This document shows positions 1-11,994 of a stretch of 12,078 nucleotides of DNA, in pieces. The stretch is taken from IMG/VR virus record IMGVR_UViG_2703718672_000013. One strand, written 5' to 3'. The stretch is from a virus (Duplodnaviria > Heunggongvirae > Uroviricota > Caudoviricetes). Position numbers and translations under genes: made by a program. The notes beneath the pieces are model-generated. The model made no database searches. It was given only the letters and a program-made list of their open reading frames with translations, and had not been told where the DNA came from. Within the stretch, counting starts at the first letter, position 1. Each line of letters starts with the position of its first letter.

Positions 1-2405
1 GCATCGTGCAGGGCGTTATGGCGTTCACCTTCGAATGGAATAGTCGTTCTTGCGTCGAAATCCATCACCAGTCCCAGAGCAACCATCGTTCTTACATCGC
101 GATCATTGGTGTAACGCCACGGGCAGGGGATCCCCTGCCGTTCATATGAACGGCGTAAAATCACGTTGTCGAAAGTTGCACCGTTACCCCAGACCTGAAC
201 AAAAAATTCACCGGAGTTTTCGTCGATAAATTCCCGGAATTGCAGCAGTGCATCATCCAACGTGATTTCATCGGTCAGAATGGAGGATTGTGCTTCGCGT
301 GACTGTTTCAGCCACCACTTAATGGTGTCCCGATCGATGACCCCACCTGCGGTTTCCAGATCGATAGTTTTGCTGAATTCTGGCCCCATCTCTCCGGTTG
401 CCGGATCAAAAAACTTACCGGCTATAGAGTTTATTGGCGCATCAGGATTTTTTCCCATTGTTTCAAGGTCAATCATCAGATGGTGCCACAACCTGCTGGT
501 GGATGAGATTTCATGATGACCGTTCACTTTAATTAAGGGATTTGCTGTTTCGCCAGTTTTATTATCGCTGGCGTGATACTGATCGCTGCCAGTGTTCTCC
601 TTGTGCAGATGTTCAGTGCCTTCCATTTCCTCCGGATCATTTTTCTGAGCTTCAGCCTGATTCTCTTCATCGAATGTTTCCAGGTAGGTTGCGTTCCCCA
701 TCACCGCACCACAGTCAGGACAGTTGCCGCCACCGGTCTGACCGCATGCGGTGCAAACTTTTTCCAGTTCCTGTTGCACTGCTGGTTCTGGTTGTTGTTC
801 TTCTGGCCCGTTTTGTTGCGTATCCGGGCTGTTTTGTTCCGCTTCTGGCTCATTTTGTTTCACGTTGGGCTGATTCTGGTCCTCAGCGTCGCGACTCTGG
901 ATCCCTTTCACCCATTTCGGATCATTCGGGTCGCTAATCCCTTCAACAAATTCACCACGTGATGCAGCAAGCAATTTATCGGCGTCAGGCTGGCTGATAT
1001 TGGCTGCCTGCATAATTTTGTTTACTTCGTCAGCGGTAACTTTTACCGGCTCTGATTGTTCGGAATCTTCAGCGGTATCCACATTTTGCGGTAAGCCCGT
1101 GTATGTGCCATTTTTTCGGGCAAAATATTCTTCTTTTGAGATTTCGGTACCGCCGGCAGCCAGCGCCTTGTCCAGACCAGAAAGTTTGTTTGCCCTGCCG
1201 TATTTTTCCCCGCCCTTATCGGTAAAGACGAAATAAAATGGTCCTTCACGCTCTACAGATGGTTCAGCTTCCACCAGGATTTCATTTTTTTGAGTATCGG
1301 ATTCTGCCGTCTCCACTGGAGCAGTTTGTGCTGCTGACGGCTGGAGAGCATCAGTAGAGCTCTGGTCTGTTTCTTCATGTTCAAACACGCCCTTTGTCGT
1401 CAGGTATTCACTGATATATTTGTTCAGTGCAACGGGATCTTTGTGAATATCGATCGGACGTTCGCGAACAAGGCCAAAAATAGTCTGACGGTCATAGCCA
1501 AGTGCTTCGGGCTGTTTGCGCATTGATGCTGAGATACGCTTCCAGTCTTCGCGATCCTTGTCGATAACCTCATTTGTCGCCCAGCGATGGATGGTACCGT
1601 CAATGTTTCCTGCATCCACATCACCGGGCCAGAGGGCGCAGGCCAGTTCATTGTCGAGTGTTTTCCATGTCTGTTTGTATTCGCGGCGAATGGCAACAGT
1701 GACAGCCCCGGTTTTTTCAGCAGCGTTTTCAGTGTTCTGTTGGTTGACTCTGGCGCGGGTGAGATCAACAACAGACGTGTATTTTCCGGTTTCCTTGCGT
1801 TCACCTTCGCGACGTTTTTTCCAGATGCGCATCTCTGCCTGAATTTCAGGCCATTTAGCGCCAGGCTCACATTTATGCTTAACCCACCCGATGGCATGCA
1901 GTTTAAGTTCAGGATACATGGCGTTAACTTCTGGCATTTTCATCAACGCTTCAACGATATGTCCGCCGAATGTTGCCATGTCTTCCTGTAGTAATTCCTG
2001 TGCGCTAATCACCATATCAACGGTGATGTTTTCGCATGTGTCGAATTTAACCAGGACTGCGTTCTGTACTTCAGGGGACAGCTTGTCAAAATTGACGTTC
2101 ATCGGATCGGATTCTGGTTCGACCGGTACAAAGGAAGCTGACTCCTCATCCCAGCGGTTTTCCTGCATATATTCGGTATCCCAGGAATCGAGGGCAGGGC
2201 GGGGTATGCCGGGTTTATCCTCGCAGACAATAAATTTATAAGCGCAGTCCTGAGCTGCCGGGAATTGCTCCAGAAATTGCCAGTGAAATTTTGCGCGTGC
2301 GCGACGCTCATCACCGGCTTCAATGGCAGTGGCCACCGCAACAGCGCTATCTTCTTTTATGGCCTGTTCGTCAGGAATAGCAGCGCAAATAAAGATTTTA
2401 CTCAT
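1..2405 (-). CDS. RecE-like exonuclease, partial (C-terminus beyond window start); RecE-like N-terminal/middle region with C-x2-C...C-x2-C zinc ribbon, followed by a DnaQ-like DEDDh 3'-5' exonuclease domain
   Basis: Own reverse-strand translation from ATG at 2405 (MSKIFICAAIPDEQ...) is open to position 1; the six-frame track omits it because there is no in-window stop. Contains KVCTACGQTGGGNCPDCGAVMG, which I recall from E. coli RecE, then MIDLETMG (Exo I D-x-E), FDNVIL (Exo II) and HNALHDA (Exo III H-x4-D). GAGG Shine-Dalgarno about 10 nt upstream. Confidence 0.72.
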   Translation of the reverse strand, partial: MSKIFICAAIPDEQAIKEDSAVAVATAIEAGDERRARAKFHWQFLEQFPAAQDCAYKFIVCEDKPGIPRPALDSWDTEYMQENRWDEESASFVPVEPESDPMNVNFDKLSPEVQNAVLVKFDTCENITVDMVISAQELLQEDMATFGGHIVEALMKMPEVNAMYPELKLHAIGWVKHKCEPGAKWPEIQAEMRIWKKRREGERKETGKYTSVVDLTRARVNQQNTENAAEKTGAVTVAIRREYKQTWKTLDNELACALWPGDVDAGNIDGTIHRWATNEVIDKDREDWKRISASMRKQPEALGYDRQTIFGLVRERPIDIHKDPVALNKYISEYLTTKGVFEHEETDQSSTDALQPSAAQTAPVETAESDTQKNEILVEAEPSVEREGPFYFVFTDKGGEKYGRANKLSGLDKALAAGGTEISKEEYFARKNGTYTGLPQNVDTAEDSEQSEPVKVTADEVNKIMQAANISQPDADKLLAASRGEFVEGISDPNDPKWVKGIQSRDAEDQNQPNVKQNEPEAEQNSPDTQQNGPEEQQPEPAVQQELEKVCTACGQTGGGNCPDCGAVMGNATYLETFDEENQAEAQKNDPEEMEGTEHLHKENTGSDQYHASDNKTGETANPLIKVNGHHEISSTSRLWHHLMIDLETMGKNPDAPINSIAGKFFDPATGEMGPEFSKTIDLETAGGVIDRDTIKWWLKQSREAQSSILTDEITLDDALLQFREFIDENSGEFFVQVWGNGATFDNVILRRSYERQGIPCPWRYTNDRDVRTMVALGLVMDFDARTTIPFEGERHNALHD

Positions 2406-2498
2406 TGTGTTTTAACCTCATTACAGATTTAAGGGTGAACAAATCCCTGCCATTGCTGGCATATAAAAATGAAACCGGATATTAATTACGGTGCTGTT

Positions 2499-2690
2499 TT
2501 AAAGTCCTGCCGGTATTTCGTTATTATTAGTGTGAGTAGTTTTATCTACCGGATAACAGTTACCGGGAATTTTTTGTTCTGCTGCTGCAGCCATGCATTC
2601 TTTCATTGAACCGTATAAGCCAGTCACCAGCTCAAGAGATTCGCCGGAAACAAGATAAACTGTCAGAACGAGTGCAAATGTTGTATTCAT
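2499..2690 (-). CDS. YdfD-like small protein (63 aa) with hydrophobic N-terminal segment; Qin-prophage YdfD family, reported lysis-inducing
   Basis: ATG at 2690 overlaps the upstream TGA (ATGA coupling); AAGGA Shine-Dalgarno; N-terminus MNTTFALVLTVYLVSGESL is signal/TM-like; sits directly after the DicB-like gene as ydfD does in Qin. Confidence 0.6.
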   Translation of the reverse strand: MNTTFALVLTVYLVSGESLELVTGLYGSMKECMAAAAEQKIPGNCYPVDKTTHTNNNEIPAGL

Positions 2691-2875
2691 TGTTTATATC
2701 CTTTTTGCAGCAGGTCCAGACGAGCCAGCATTGAAGGAATGCATACTTCATTTAACAGGTCCTGCTCGAGTTTTCTCTGCTTAATGGCGTCTTCAATAAA
2801 TGTTTTGTCTCCAGTGATAACGCCAATTTCGAAACGAAGTTCAGACGTGCTGGCATTACATGATAACTTTTCCAT
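2687..2875 (-). CDS. dicB: DicB-like cell division inhibitor (62 aa)
   Basis: Internal ATG at 2875 with GAGGA 7 nt upstream (the track ORF begins at an upstream TTG). Product MEKLSCNASTSELRFEIGVITGDKTFIEDAIKQRKLEQDLLNEVCIPSMLARLDLLQKGYKQ matches remembered E. coli DicB (62 aa; EIGV, EDAI-KRK, SMLARL motifs). About 180 nt downstream of the DicF-like element. Confidence 0.75.
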   Translation of the reverse strand: MEKLSCNASTSELRFEIGVITGDKTFIEDAIKQRKLEQDLLNEVCIPSMLARLDLLQKGYKQ

Positions 2876-3054
2876 TATCGCGTCCTCAACAATGAATTTT
2901 GTGATGCGGTGCCTGGTGCCTCCAGGTGACGTTAACCAGTTAACAATTAACGCCGGATACAGAGCATTCTCGTTACTCAGCAAATGACCGCTTTACCGAT
3001 TTAACTGTTCCGCGTGCGCTGAGCCGCATTCACCGCATCACAAAATTCACTTTT

Positions 3055-3113
3055 AAAAAAGGGCGGCAGAGCAGTTACGGAGTAAAACTGATACCGCCAA
3101 ATGTCACCAGAAT
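3055..3113 (-). ncRNA. dicF: DicF-like small RNA (ftsZ-targeting sRNA family of Qin/Rac-type prophages)
   Basis: Minus-strand sequence ATTCTGGTGACATTTGGCGGTATCAGTTTTACTCCGTAACTGCTCTGCCGCCCTTTTTT is near-identical to my recollection of E. coli DicF, ending in a U-run; located immediately upstream of the DicB-like gene in the same orientation. Confidence 0.7.
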
Positions 3114-3448
3114 ATTGATAACAGAGGGCGTTGCAGCGGGGTTGTCACTTAAGCGTATGGTCAACCTGACAACCCGGTGTCCTCAACGGGGAAAGAATAA
3201 CCCCGCCATACTTACCGCCGCGCCATTTCGCGGATTGCCACAACCGGAAGCGCACGGTCGAATTAAATTTAACGACGGCTCTAAGGGAGAAGGACTTCGC
3301 CGTGCACTTTCGTGTTATGCCCTGACTTTTCAGGGATATATCCTTTCAGTAAACTGTCAGTGCCGGATTCTTATCTGTGTCCGGCGCACGACCACACGTA
3401 GCAGCGTGTTGGTCTCCATTTTTAATTCAGCCCTTAATGGAGGATAAA

Positions 3449-3634
3449 ATGCCAAACAAACCATGCCCTGCCTGTAACGCTCTTTCTGGCTTTTTAGAGA
3501 AGGGCGGTTATTACATTTTTAACTGTCCAGAACATGTTGAATTTCATATATCAAAACTTGACAGTATCATTACAAAGCCAAATCAGTATCAGTCTGATTT
3601 ACTGAATAAAGAGTTAAACGCCGCCCGAGATTAA
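3449..3634 (+). CDS. Small hypothetical protein (61 aa) with zinc-ribbon-like cysteines (C-P-A-C ... N-C-P-E-H), encoded antisense to the leftward operon
   Basis: ATG at 3449 preceded by GGAGGA (3439-3444) at 5-nt spacing; the track ORF 3377..3634 contains this start internally. No homolog recognised. Confidence 0.35.
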   Translation: MPNKPCPACNALSGFLEKGGYYIFNCPEHVEFHISKLDSIITKPNQYQSDLLNKELNAARD

Positions 3635-3671: not shown

Positions 3672-4210
3672 CTATTGTTGAACTGGATTAAACCAGTAAT
3701 TCTCTATTGCTCTTATTGTTACCATCGGATGATTGCCGGGGGTTATTTTAAGTTCGGGAGGAAAAGGCTCTCCATCAGCAGCCATCATTGAGTATGTGAA
3801 ATCCGCCGACGCAGTCCCTTTCATGATAATTCCGAATTTTTCAAGTAATGAGAGCAGTTCCGGTAATCCTGTGTCATCTGAATAACTTTCCTCATAGAAA
3901 GAAGCGATTGCCGCAGGAGATGACAGTTCTCGCTCTGCAATTTTTTTGTAGTTTTCCAGAATTCTTTTTTTGAATACTTTTCCTCGACATGAAAACCCAT
4001 CACCGAGGCAATCCGCTTTGCAGTTTCTTCAGTATTCTGGTTGTTTGTTACCGAAACAGAGTACAATCCGGTAAACGCATCGCGCACATTACGAGCCATA
4101 TTATCAATGTATTTCTTCGTTGCAGATTCTAATTCAACTTCGTTCAGACGTTGGTGAAGTGCATGTGCTGCAATTTCCTGGATTTCTTTTAGTAAATCTT
4201 TAAATTCCAT
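3672..4210 (-). pseudogene. Hypothetical leftward-operon gene disrupted by a frameshift in an A7 homopolymer (T-run 3965-3971 on plus strand); N-terminal about 80 codons in one frame, about 95 further codons in the -1 frame
   Basis: Track ORF 3821..4210 turns low-complexity after ...MGFHVEEKYS; the -1 frame from the A-run gives a protein-like continuation (KKRILENYKKIAERELSSPAAIASFYEESYSDDTGLPELLSLLEKFGII...NYWFNPVQQ) to a TAG at 3672. ATG at 4210 follows the upstream gene stop by 12 nt. Confidence 0.5.
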
Positions 4211-4221
4211 CTTTAACTCCG

Positions 4222-4350
4222 TTAGTCGTTAGATTTTGCCGAACTGGAAAGCGCCTGTTTAAACTCACTGAAGCTGAGAGCTTCCTCGCCTTCGGCAAGG
4301 CCTTCGAAGTATTCTTCGTAAGCCTTTTCCATGATTGTGTCGAAATCCAT
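4222..4350 (-). CDS. YdfB/YdaG-like small protein (42 aa)
   Basis: Own translation: MDFDTIMEKAYEEYFEGLAEGEEALSFSEFKQALSSSAKSND; ATG at 4350 follows the upstream TGA by one base; size and position match ydfB (Qin) / ydaG (Rac). Below the track's length cutoff. Confidence 0.6.
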   Translation of the reverse strand: MDFDTIMEKAYEEYFEGLAEGEEALSFSEFKQALSSSAKSND

Positions 4351-4351
4351 A

Positions 4352-4507
4352 TCACTCACCTGAGTTTCTTTCCAGCCAGCGACGGGCACCATTTTCGGTT
4401 TTAAACGTTTTGCTTTTGGTATACGTCATCGCGGTGAATGTACCGTCCTGGTTGGGAAACACGCCGTACACCAGAGATTCGTTGTTGCCAAGATCGATAG
4501 TATCCAT
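4352..4507 (-). CDS. YdfA/YdaF-like DUF1391 protein (51 aa)
   Basis: ATG at 4507 with GAGG 6 nt upstream; MDTIDLGNNESLVYGVFPNQDGTFTAMTYTKSKTFKTENGARRWLERNSGE resembles the 51-aa YdfA/YdaF family; first gene downstream of the OL-like site. The track ORF begins at an upstream alternative start. Confidence 0.65.
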   Translation of the reverse strand: MDTIDLGNNESLVYGVFPNQDGTFTAMTYTKSKTFKTENGARRWLERNSGE

Positions 4508-4693: not shown

Positions 4694-4733
4694 ACAATTA
4701 AAAACTGTTTTTGTGTCAACAGTTTTTAATTGT
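4694..4733. promoter_or_regulatory. OL-like operator: perfect 16-bp inverted repeat (ACAATTAAAAACTGTT / AACAGTTTTTAATTGT) with 8-bp spacer; a consensus TTGACA on the minus strand lies in the spacer
   Basis: Palindrome read directly in the sequence; shares the AAAAACTGT...ACAGTTTTT core with the palindrome at 5730-5766; lies between the repressor-TA operon terminator and the leftward operon. Confidence 0.6.
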
Positions 4734-4741
4734 TGTTTTGG

Positions 4742-4768
4742 GCAAAAAAATCCCTCGAAAGAGGGAGT
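4742..4768 (-). terminator. Intrinsic terminator downstream of the ParE-like toxin gene
   Basis: Minus strand reads a 6-bp stem TCCCTC / GAGGGA with 4-nt loop followed by a 7-U run (plus-strand A-run 4744-4750), 17 nt after the toxin stop. Confidence 0.6.
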
Positions 4769-4784: not shown

Positions 4785-5072
4785 TCAGATAGAGAAGGGA
4801 AATTGTCGCCGAGAATGTGTCACGCTTACAATCTCAATGCTTGAAGCAGCTACTCTGTACAGGATTATGTAGTTAGGGTGGGTCACGATCTCTCTCAATC
4901 CAGAAACCCGTTCGCTTGGTGGATATAAGTACGGATGCTCAGATAGAGGTAATACCGATGTTTCAATGCGTATTTTTAGTCTACGTGCTGCCGGTGGGTT
5001 CTCCTTGGCGATGTAAGTTATGATCTGGCGCAAATCATCGCGAGCAGACGGTAGCCATAAAATGGGTAACAT
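4785..5072 (-). CDS. parE: ParE/RelE-superfamily type II toxin (95 aa)
   Basis: ParE-like pattern W..SA..DL..I..YIA..NP.AA......E....L...P..G........LRE......YI.LYRV....IEIV.V.H.RR; start overlaps the upstream stop (TAATG). Confidence 0.78.
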   Translation of the reverse strand: MLPILWLPSARDDLRQIITYIAKENPPAARRLKIRIETSVLPLSEHPYLYPPSERVSGLREIVTHPNYIILYRVAASSIEIVSVTHSRRQFPFSI

Positions 5073-5263
5073 TACTCGCTCTTGTTAGTTACAGCAATTT
5101 GAGCAATAAGATTTTCCATTTCAGCCATTACCTCGTCATGTGGAATTGCGGGGCGAGTGTCTGCAAGGCTTGACGTTACTTTAGTGCGCAACCATTCGTT
5201 GTAACTGTTTTCTTGTTCGGTAGTTTCGAATTCTGAAACTATCGGAGAAAGGGCTGTACCCAT
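5072..5263 (-). CDS. Small antitoxin (63 aa), PaaA-like partner of the ParE-family toxin
   Basis: GAGGAG Shine-Dalgarno 7 nt upstream of ATG at 5263; 1-nt stop/start overlap with the toxin; 63 aa, acidic; resembles my recollection of PaaA2 from E. coli O157 three-component paaR-paaA-parE systems. Confidence 0.68.
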   Translation of the reverse strand: MGTALSPIVSEFETTEQENSYNEWLRTKVTSSLADTRPAIPHDEVMAEMENLIAQIAVTNKSE

Positions 5264-5290: not shown

Positions 5291-5692
5291 TCACGCCCGG
5301 CGGCTTTTTTGTGCCGCCAGCCACCTAGCAATGGTTTCTTCCATTGATTTTTTCTTGTCTTTGATTTCTTGAAGCATTTTTTCTTGGTCTTCCTCAGGAA
5401 ACGCACTAAAAGCTTGGAGCAGTTCGCGTTGGCGAGGACCAATTTTCATCGTGTCAGGGGTGAAAATTTGCTCACACTCTTCAGGAGGCAATAAAAACCA
5501 ATGCAATGGATGCCCTGAAACCTCAACCAGTTTATCCAAACTTGAGGCTTTAGGTGTAGCCTTACCGCTGACCCATTGTTGAACAGTTTGTTGTGTCACA
5601 CCAATTCTACGGGCAAGCTCAGCCTGGCTCCATCCAGTTTCCTGAAGAAGCTTGCTGATTCTGTACATAGATACTTCTAGGGCGCTCATCAT
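5291..5692 (-). CDS. cI/RacR-like prophage repressor, HTH (XRE family); probably also the transcriptional regulator (PaaR-like) of the downstream toxin-antitoxin pair
   Basis: HTH segment LLQETGWSQAELARRIGVTQQTVQQWVSG; divergent from the Cro-like gene across a palindromic operator; ends 27 nt before the antitoxin. Start uncertain (5692, 5689 or 5668). Confidence 0.8.
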   Translation of the reverse strand: MMSALEVSMYRISKLLQETGWSQAELARRIGVTQQTVQQWVSGKATPKASSLDKLVEVSGHPLHWFLLPPEECEQIFTPDTMKIGPRQRELLQAFSAFPEEDQEKMLQEIKDKKKSMEETIARWLAAQKSRRA

Positions 5693-9583: not shown

Positions 9584-9653
9584 NNNNNNNNNNNNNNNNN
9601 NNNNNNNNNNNNNNNNNNNNNNNNNNNNNNNNNNNNNNNNNNNNNNNNNNNNN
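9584..9653. other. Assembly gap (70 N)
   Basis: Run of n characters. Confidence 0.99.
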
Positions 9654-11234: not shown

Positions 11235-11781
11235 GCGTTCTCCCCATGAGCATTAAAGGATGCTTAAGATATGCTATGTCACTGATAAAAAATTTGTTGT
11301 GTGTGTTTAGTTATTTTATCTACCTCCATTATGATTTAAGACTGATATATGTTATCAGCAAAGGTACATCGTTATTATTTTACCTGTCAATACATTTGAT
11401 ATTGATTATCGTTTACATCGCTTGCTTAGGAAATTGAAGGCAGGTAACTATCATGTCAATGAACTAACCCACAGTCTAACGTACTTCTTTCCCCAATCAC
11501 CAACAACCAAATTCCTGTTATCACCACTGGGATTTTGGCGCAACTTCATGGTGCAGAGGTAAATAGCATCAAGCAAAATCTCTTTTTCCGTTGTTGTCCT
11601 TATGGGACGTCTGTCTTTCTGACCGATTTCATATTGGCGAGGTAATGGGAAGTTAAGTAGAATAGCTGCGGGTGCTTGAGGCTATCTGCCTCGGGCATGA
11701 ACACCAACGGCAGATAGAGAAAAGCCCCAGTTAACATTACGCGTCCTGCAAGACGCCTAACATTAATCTGAGGCTCAATCT

Positions 11782-11994
11782 ATGAACGGCAAATCTAGGT
11801 TAGCCTCTTACGTGCCGAAAGGCAAGGAGAAGCAGGCTATGAAGCAGCAAAAGGCGATGTTAATCGCCCTGATCGTCATCTGTTTAACCGTCATAGTGAC
11901 GGCACTGGTAACGAGGAAAGACCTCTGCGAGGTACGAGTCCGAACCGGCCAGACGGAGGTCGCTGTCTTCACAGCTTACGAACCTGAGGAGTAA
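11782..11994 (+). CDS. mok-like overlapping reading frame of a hok/sok-type type I toxin locus
   Basis: 70-aa ORF that contains the hok-like frame, the arrangement of mok/hok; GAGG upstream of ATG 11782. Confidence 0.5.
   Translation: MNGKSRLASYVPKGKEKQAMKQQKAMLIALIVICLTVIVTALVTRKDLCEVRVRTGQTEVAVFTAYEPEE
11839..11994 (+). CDS. hok: Hok/Gef-family type I toxin (51 aa membrane peptide)
   Basis: MKQQKAMLIALIVICLTVIVTALVTRKDLCEVRVRTGQTEVAVFTAYEPEE matches the Hok family signature (LTRKSLCEIR...EVAAF.AYE) as I recall it; a 9-bp hairpin lies in the leader (11682-11717). Confidence 0.78.
   Translation: MKQQKAMLIALIVICLTVIVTALVTRKDLCEVRVRTGQTEVAVFTAYEPEE

Follow-up and report, generated by a model that had tools for sequence, protein, structure and literature searches.

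The dicF-dicB-ydfD cassette of Escherichia coli O157:H7 prophage Sp4 and the conserved leader RNA upstream of DicF

Identification of the dicF-dicB-ydfD cassette

The stretch of DNA analyzed here, referred to as the window throughout, is 12,078 nucleotides (nt) long and is listed in IMG/VR as the viral record IMGVR_UViG_2703718672_000013 (Caudoviricetes). Between positions 2499 and 3113, its minus strand carries the small RNA DicF and two short genes, dicB and ydfD, and this region is almost certainly the dicF-dicB-ydfD segment of the repressor-controlled early-left operon of the lambdoid prophage Sp4 of Escherichia coli O157:H7. An earlier note, which was made from the sequence alone, had described a near-exact DicF followed by DicB-like and YdfD-like open reading frames (ORFs) at these coordinates, which proved to be exact. 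Our searches confirmed this observation and supported its interpretation with minor corrections.

An Rfam scan of the whole window revealed two matches at the gathering level, and one of them was DicF (RF00039). The match at 3061-3112 on the minus strand showed a score of 76.9 bits (gathering score 48) and an E-value of 5.7e-16, and it extended over the full length of the model (1-52 of 52) with no non-canonical pairs. The RNA is located in a dicBF-type operon, between the genes at the ydfABC positions and dicB. Upon comparison with the 53-nt K-12 dicF, we found three differences (nt 1, T>A; nt 12, G>A; nt 38, G>A), in line with the "few positions" given in the earlier note. The DicF hairpin has a fold energy of -15.5 kcal/mol, and the Sp4 and K-12 versions form the same hairpin. 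The terminator U-run contains six T residues in Sp4 and five in K-12. The CUCCG core, which pairs with CGGAG of ftsZ, is unchanged in Sp4 DicF. Our own inspection of the RNAduplex output placed nt 38 in the hairpin loop and at a mismatch of the predicted ftsZ duplex. The duplex energies were -36.6 kcal/mol for Sp4 and -38.5 kcal/mol for K-12, which are crude values that ignore intramolecular structure and have no shuffled control.

The K-12 RNA has been characterized experimentally. DicF represses ftsZ, with which it pairs via its 3' region, and it pairs with xylR via its 5' end; direct base-pairing control of ftsZ, xylR and pykA was demonstrated with compensatory mutations (PMC5069750). The K-12 ydfABC-dicF transcript stops at the DicF terminator, with part of it reading through into dicB-ydfD; RNase III yields a 190-nt species from which RNase E produces the 53-nt DicF (PMC10448788). 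DicF also builds up in stationary phase and when oxygen is low, even if induction is not complete (PMC10448788, PMC6832061).

The 62-amino acid (aa) ORF downstream of DicF is DicB, as the earlier note had proposed. It matched Pfam PF05358 with 131.8 bits (cut-off 27) over all 62 residues and NCBIfam NF049927 with 123.7 bits (cut-off 100), and it aligned with K-12 DicB without gaps at 55% identity (dS 0.56, dN/dS 0.54, where dS and dN are the synonymous and nonsynonymous substitution rates). The next ORF was likewise found to be YdfD-like; it matched DUF1482 (PF07358) with 69.2 bits (cut-off 25) and was 63% identical to K-12 YdfD (dS 0.64, dN/dS 0.35), and none of the NCBIfam models matched it. 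The two genes overlap by a 4-nt ATGA. Both proteins are under relaxed purifying selection. Sp4 DicB aligned over its full length and without gaps with 17 other distinct alleles, and Sp4 YdfD did likewise with 24. Among the 18 distinct DicB sequences recovered, the Sp4 allele was the most divergent at the N-terminus, and all 18, including the Sp4 sequence itself as a member of the set that defined the pattern, shared the core TSE..F.IG...F.EDAI..RK.E..LLN...I.S..A.L.....G..Q.

Published work on the K-12 alleles showed that DicB acts through MinC and blocks ManYZ-dependent phages (PMC6832061, PMC10448788) and that YdfD is a lysis protein that inhibits IspG, with co-expressed DicB offsetting the lysis (PMC8835842). 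The role of YdfD in lysis through IspG was absent from the earlier note. By homology, DicF, DicB and YdfD would have the corresponding functions at the Sp4 locus.

Positions 2499-3260 were identical to the Sakai prophage Sp4 at 762 of 762 positions (100% identity), and the Sakai locus is annotated within the feature "prophage Sp4, lambda-like phage" of an O157:H7 strain. Comparison with the ECs_1055-ECs_1059 region of Sakai revealed an identical sequence and gene set with no difference, and the window is the Sp4 locus itself or a clonal copy thereof. A 1.1-kb stretch (2400-3500) was present with 100% identity in many E. coli O157:H7 chromosomes, and some version of it was found in 4741 of 5426 complete E. 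coli genomes. DicF occurred in exactly the form seen in the window in 617 of the 5426 genomes, at a median of one place per genome, and in 324 of the 617 the identity was at least 99%.

Several dicF or dicBF copies are present in different prophages of Sakai and EDL933 (PMC5069750). Four dicF copies were reported in Sakai and 86-24, where DicF activates the translation of pchA and represses stx2A (PMC7873438), and four DicF orthologues of different E. coli O157:H7 prophages are reportedly produced in microaerobic growth (PMC6832061). In a published table of EDL933, DicF_1 is gene Z1327 at 1,255,006 on the minus strand (PMC5331693); by order or position and strand, the Sp4 copy probably corresponds to DicF_1/Z1327. 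This table was all that we recovered when the literature was searched by locus tag. We also observed that pchA is Sakai ECs_1091 (28366-28680 of our Sakai extract L135, outside the window) and is located inside Sp4, approximately 18 kb from the Sp4 dicF copy. It is mildly notable that a DicF copy and its published target in enterohemorrhagic E. coli (EHEC) share one prophage.

None of our observations speaks against the identification, but it has several limits. DicB and YdfD show only 55% and 63% identity, respectively, to the characterized K-12 proteins, and their MinC, ManYZ and IspG activities are putative in Sp4. The G12>A change is located in the 5' single-stranded region, which serves xylR and pykA in K-12, and these targets could differ; the T>A change affects nt 1, the 5' end generated by RNase E, and could shift that end. 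The correspondence of the Sp4 copy to one of the four published EHEC copies is drawn from reviews and the EDL933 table, the early-left operator and promoter described below are candidates assigned by inspection, and the dicF RNA is not annotated at the Sp4 locus in RefSeq records.

The cassette is thus an already published locus of a reference pathogen genome, and the finding is already known. Little is at stake in the cassette itself, as the EHEC DicF copies, DicB and YdfD all have an experimental literature. The practical value lies in annotation, since the dicF RNA is unmarked in RefSeq at the Sp4 site, and in the caution that activities measured in K-12 cannot simply be assumed for Sp4 DicB and YdfD, given their divergence from the K-12 proteins.

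Organization of the early-left operon

The features of the operon are listed in Table 1. The palindrome that holds the candidate operator and promoter lies between the terminator of the ParE/PaaA2 module and ydfA. The region of ydfA, ydfB and the 129-aa gene (3821-4507, minus strand) contains a match to DUF1391 with 97.5 bits (Pfam), and a long untranslated stretch that contains DicF precedes dicB.

Table 1. Features of the Sp4 early-left operon, with positions in the window and Sakai locus tags
Feature	Position	Strand	Sakai locus	Remarks
Integrase gene			ECs_1055	
Excisionase gene			ECs_1056	
Exonuclease gene, 823 aa	1-2405	-	ECs_1057	Starts at 2405 and runs off the window; RefSeq annotation
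ydfD-like gene, 63 aa, DUF1482	2499-2690	-	ECs_1058	Start overlaps the dicB stop
dicB, 62 aa, cell-division inhibitor	2687-2875	-	ECs_1059	ATG start; annotated dicB in RefSeq and "cell division inhibition protein" in Sakai
dicB Shine-Dalgarno sequence GAGGA	2883-2887	-		7 nt ahead of the ATG; read from the sequence
Structured spacer	2888-3054	-		167 nt; closed by an inverted repeat; ends beside the dicB ribosome-binding site
U-run TTTTTT	3055-3060	-		Completes the intrinsic terminator of the DicF hairpin; read from the sequence
DicF small RNA	3061-3113	-		53 nt by K-12 numbering; 5' single-stranded region and terminator hairpin
Leader RNA, predicted four-way junction	3124-3248	-		Directly upstream of DicF; ~120 nt
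Imperfect hairpin, ~16 bp	3245-3312	-		Upstream of the leader; fold -21.2 kcal/mol, z = -1.7
129-aa gene in the K-12 ydfC position	3821-4210	-		Unrelated to ydfC, not alignable
ydfB	4222-4350	-		Near-identical to K-12
ydfA	4352-4507	-		Near-identical to K-12
Palindrome with 16-bp arms, holds TTGACA	4694-4733	.		Candidate operator and early-left promoter
Terminator of the ParE/PaaA2 module	4751-4766			
PaaA2-type antitoxin and ParE-type toxin pair	4785-5263	-		Between the repressor and the early-left promoter
Helix-turn-helix repressor	5291-5692	-		Distantly DicA-like; 51.5 bits, cut-off 101

The spacer between DicF and dicB is strongly structured. Its minimum free energy (MFE) is -73.3 kcal/mol (z = -5.8 against shuffles), and it is closed by a 24-nt inverted repeat in which 3031-3054 is 92% complementary to 2888-2911. 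This closing helix probably serves as a second processing site for a double-strand-specific enzyme of the RNase III type, which would separate DicF from the dicB message.

The gene downstream of the cassette, which the earlier note had called a recombination gene, is only loosely so. An ExoVIII/RecE-like central segment is present, but its score with NF007259 was 260 bits against a cut-off of 1269, and the RecE/ExoVIII assignment was rejected. The sole Pfam match was instead a C-terminal Rv2179c-like 3'-5' exonuclease domain of the DEDDh type (186 bits). In its first 200 aa, the protein was 93% identical to the product of the K-12 pseudogene ydfE, of which it is the intact form.

Structured leader RNA upstream of DicF

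The region directly upstream of DicF, which we call the leader, was 98% identical to K-12 and is predicted to fold into a four-way junction. The closing helix pairs 3237-3244 with 3130-3137 (GUUGUGGC/GCUGCAAC), and three hairpins are proposed in addition: one of 5 bp that is invariant, one that forms a long arm and varies at its tip, and one of 8 bp whose 19-nt loop is conserved. Across 34 distinct variants, which were gathered by an exact 26-nt pattern whose columns are invariant by construction, 96.5% of the cells were paired in this fold, compared with 35-63% when the partners were slid. Seven pairs were changed on both sides, a level reached in 0 of 500 shuffles, although the close relationship of the variants inflates the shuffle control, and structure was not taken into account when the variable tip was aligned. 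In P1-type plasmids, a further exchange of CGGU/ACCG to CGGC/GCCG was present. The single-sequence MFE structure of the window leader was the same junction, with a weak z of -1.1.

Our own covariance model of the leader, R1, scored 153.8 bits on the window leader and identified one copy in the window and one in 30 kb of Sp4. No Rfam family covered the leader when the window region and the P1 and cdtI homologues were searched with permissive thresholds. BLAST against phage records revealed the leader without DicF in Stx2c-converting phages, cdtI, 2H10 and a Salmonella phage, and also in P1, where the GenBank label is "dicF-like region". The P1 copy is located just downstream of the C1-controlled ban promoter, and the cdtI copy approximately 280 nt past the strong pL-like promoter that follows cI.

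In every type, the leader is followed within approximately 10-45 nt by an intrinsic terminator whose hairpin sequence differs: DicF, the cdtI/Stx2c type (in which only the GGCGG stem base is shared), the short GGCGGAAATGGATATCCGCC type and the P1 type. In cdtI, a long inverted repeat again follows the terminator, just before the first gene, so that the complete arrangement, from leader and terminator to closed spacer and gene, is conserved.

Taken together, the leader and DicF agree in length and location with the "long DicF" of 190 nt described in the literature. An RNA of 190 nt ending at the DicF terminator would begin at approximately 3246-3250, which is the 3' strand of the imperfect hairpin upstream of the leader. 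This hairpin showed few differences from K-12, and its pairing was kept. The 5' end of the 190-nt species is presumably generated by an RNase III cut in this hairpin.

We compared the leader with known classes of element and with a coding reading. The put RNA of HK022 is a two-stem-loop RNA of approximately 72 nt, whereas the leader is a four-way junction of approximately 115 nt; only the 9-mer GCGCGGCGG is common to the leader and putL, where it stands in a different structural context, and put has L and R copies past both early promoters, whereas the leader has a single copy. The leader model had no match in the 11 kb of HK022 searched, which included the immunity region and putL as taken from the genome by the positions given in PMC9378689. 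We rejected the leader as a member of the put class, although a put-like function is conceivable. We also rejected a lambda-type nut site, which would comprise boxA and a short boxB hairpin with an arginine-rich N protein encoded just downstream: only a weak boxA-like GTGCTCTCAG was found, in the cdtI type, and the first downstream protein in cdtI has neither N-like features nor a family; in the Sp4 early-left operon, no N-like antiterminator or nut site was recognized. A coding role (a 36-aa GTG ORF at 3145-3255 on the minus strand) was rejected, as indels of +1, +2 and +4 nt in the variable hairpin break the frame. By eye, we found no convincing antiterminator pairing between the leader and the 5' arm of the terminator.

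The sequence conservation of the leader has long been known, as the P1 label indicates. A 1994 paper by Faubladier and Bouché reportedly describes, in its title, a widespread group of dicF-related prophage sequences. We found no description of the structure or function of the leader in the searchable literature, which did not cover the text of that paper. Its two most likely roles are a cis element for terminator read-through and the body of the stable 190-nt RNA. Tentatively, and as a possibility that we favor less than its negation, DicF may be the 3' cassette of a larger conserved RNA and one interchangeable terminator allele, with the leader as an undescribed cis RNA for read-through or as the body of the 190-nt RNA. 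Of the elements described here, only the leader has the potential to yield something new, and it might explain how phages without N pass a terminator ahead of their early genes; it is a lead rather than a result.

Distribution in phages and the division-inhibitor slot

We collected 130 loci with the leader pattern from viral contigs and other sources. DicB and YdfD were encoded downstream in 69 of the 74 loci that had DicF and at least 900 nt of downstream sequence, and the same cassette was present in the GenBank phage genome records Tritos, mEp460_ev081 and HannyBb. In Escherichia phage Evi (1646-2234 of collected locus L139), the leader, DicF and the spacer are followed by kil and then by the same exonuclease. 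Because kil stands there in place of dicB-ydfD, the slot behind the spacer appears to hold interchangeable division inhibitors.

When species-representative genomes were scanned for a DicF core pattern, only seven loci were recovered, and no broader diversity was gained. These were from Escherichia, Shigella and three metagenome-assembled genomes labeled Veillonella, Collinsella and Proteobacteria, whose dicF region was near-identical to that of E. coli.

As a separate observation, the T4-like Aeromonas phage AP1 (Straboviridae; MT713136.1, ~249.9 kb) contained a full-length DicF with 72.5 bits (3012-3063 of locus L138) and approximately 180 nt of the DicF-dicB spacer, and the leader was not present. 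Either a lytic phage has acquired this DicF horizontally, or the assembly contains an artefact.

Proposed mechanism and function

The mechanism that we propose combines the anatomy, identity and integrity established here with the processing, targets and protein activities taken from the K-12 and EHEC literature. Upon relief of the repressor (5291-5692, minus strand), transcription would begin near the 4694-4733 palindrome, cross ydfA, ydfB and the 129-aa gene, and enter the long untranslated stretch, where most transcripts would end at the terminator formed by the DicF hairpin and the U-run. RNase III and then RNase E would convert the terminated RNA into the species of approximately 190 nt, comprising the leader and DicF, and then into the 53-nt DicF. 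With Hfq, DicF would use its 3' half to pair with the ribosome-binding site of ftsZ and its 5' end to pair with further mRNAs, and in EHEC it would also activate pchA, which is encoded in the same prophage. Read-through RNA would carry the strongly structured spacer followed by the translationally coupled dicB and ydfD. Sp4 DicB and YdfD presumably keep the K-12 activities; DicB would block FtsZ-ring formation via MinC and could stop the DNA entry of ManYZ-dependent phages, and YdfD would cause lysis by IspG inhibition, an effect offset while DicB halts division.

The earlier note had interpreted the cassette as a host-manipulation and possible exclusion module. The published functions of the K-12 alleles support this, but lytic host takeover is at least as likely to be the primary role as exclusion, because the cassette lies in a repressor-controlled early-left operon and kil occupies its slot in Evi. 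We give even chances to the explanation that the cassette primarily serves host takeover in lytic growth, as lambda kil does, with phage exclusion as a by-product of leaky or bistable expression. Because it lies in the early-left operon behind the immunity repressor, the cassette would be expected to stay silent in a stable lysogen, and the DicA-repressed K-12 promoter fires only in a subpopulation or under stress (PMC10448788); moreover, the kil of Evi occupies exactly the same slot, between the same spacer and the same exonuclease, and the cassette occurs in the phage genome records named above. On the other hand, short-term expression of dicBF protects K-12 against lambda (PMC6832061), the accumulation of DicF in stationary phase or at low oxygen needs no full induction, and EHEC regulates pchA by DicF (PMC7873438). 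The takeover and protection roles are also not mutually exclusive.

The interchangeable terminators bear on a second explanation, in which the DicF hairpin of this locus acts chiefly in cis, as an internal terminator or attenuator that restricts expression of the toxic genes dicB and ydfD and of the exonuclease gene, and trans activity as a small RNA is a secondary acquisition. Related phages carry unrelated terminator hairpins in the same position after the leader (the cdtI/Stx2c, short GGCGGAAATGGATATCCGCC and P1 types), and the K-12 ydfABC-dicF RNA ends at the DicF terminator with only part of it reading through (PMC10448788). We nevertheless consider this explanation unlikely: the conservation of the DicF loop and 5' region goes well beyond the needs of a terminator, the base-pairing control of ftsZ, xylR and pykA was shown by compensatory mutations (PMC5069750), and the T4-like Aeromonas phage has DicF without the leader.

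That the cassette is the decaying cargo of a defective prophage with no present function is highly improbable: although Sp4-type O157:H7 prophages may be defective, as in strain TR01 with its frameshifted integrase, and DicB and YdfD differ greatly from their K-12 counterparts, every reading frame is intact with dN/dS below 1, both proteins align over their full length and without gaps with other alleles of their families, the DicF RNA scores over the full length of its model, the exact allele is kept in hundreds of genomes, and the EHEC DicF copies are reportedly expressed and functional (PMC6832061, PMC7873438).

Neighboring genes

Additional features were observed around the operon. An unannotated 50-aa ORF (3672-3824, minus strand), whose start overlaps the stop of the 129-aa gene by ATGA, had no Pfam or PHROG match. 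A 61-aa ORF with CxxC and CPEH motifs (3449-3634, plus strand; Sakai ECs_1061, phrog_10133) is encoded opposite to the early-left operon, flanked by the 129-aa gene and the DicF leader, and had no K-12 counterpart in the alignment. Farther away, we found a hok/sok type I toxin-antitoxin locus at 11670-11844 on the plus strand (Rfam sok, 105.6 bits), which is overlapped by a Hok-like ORF (11782-11994, plus strand) named hokD in RefSeq. The window also contains a masked run of 70 N bases at 9584-9653, inside a DUF1627 gene.

Comparison with known systems

The spacer between DicF and dicB was similar in part to STnc100 (RF02076), with which it has the closing helix and both 3' hairpins in common. 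The match was partial (model 21-154 of 206) with a score of 33.6 bits and an E-value of 1e-5. Since the gathering score of 47 was not reached and the middle of the spacer could not be aligned, we rejected its membership in the family. Many STnc100 copies are listed in the table of EDL933 (PMC5331693). A similar weak STnc100 match was also observed in the P1 ban operon, upstream of tciA (3842-3961 of locus L011).

Lambda kil in the pL operon provides a functional parallel. Both lambda and Sp4 have a small, FtsZ-directed division inhibitor in a repressor-controlled early-left operon, upstream of the exonuclease, xis and int. In contrast, lambda Kil is unrelated to DicB, which according to the literature works through MinC.

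A close relative is the Qin prophage of K-12 (ydfA-ydfB-ydfC-dicF-dicB-ydfD-ydfE). A colinear alignment of the two regions revealed the same order, the same spacing and the same ATGA overlap, so that the Qin arrangement proposed in the earlier note was well founded. Besides the divergence of DicB and YdfD, the three DicF substitutions and the only distantly DicA-like repressor of the window, further differences were present: Qin has the unrelated gene ydfC where the window has the 129-aa gene, its exonuclease is the pseudogene ydfE, which is disrupted by IS2, whereas that of the window is intact, and it has no PaaA2/ParE insertion between the repressor and the operon, unlike the window. At the DNA level, ydfA, ydfB, the leader, DicF and most of the spacer were 96-99% identical in the two prophages. 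In 50-nt steps, the identity was 92-98% in the leader, DicF and most of the spacer and 58-86% in dicB and ydfD. Because ydfA and ydfB are also approximately 98% identical to K-12, synonymous sites included, this uneven identity would be most simply explained by recombinational mosaicism rather than by an extraordinary constraint on the non-coding sequence.

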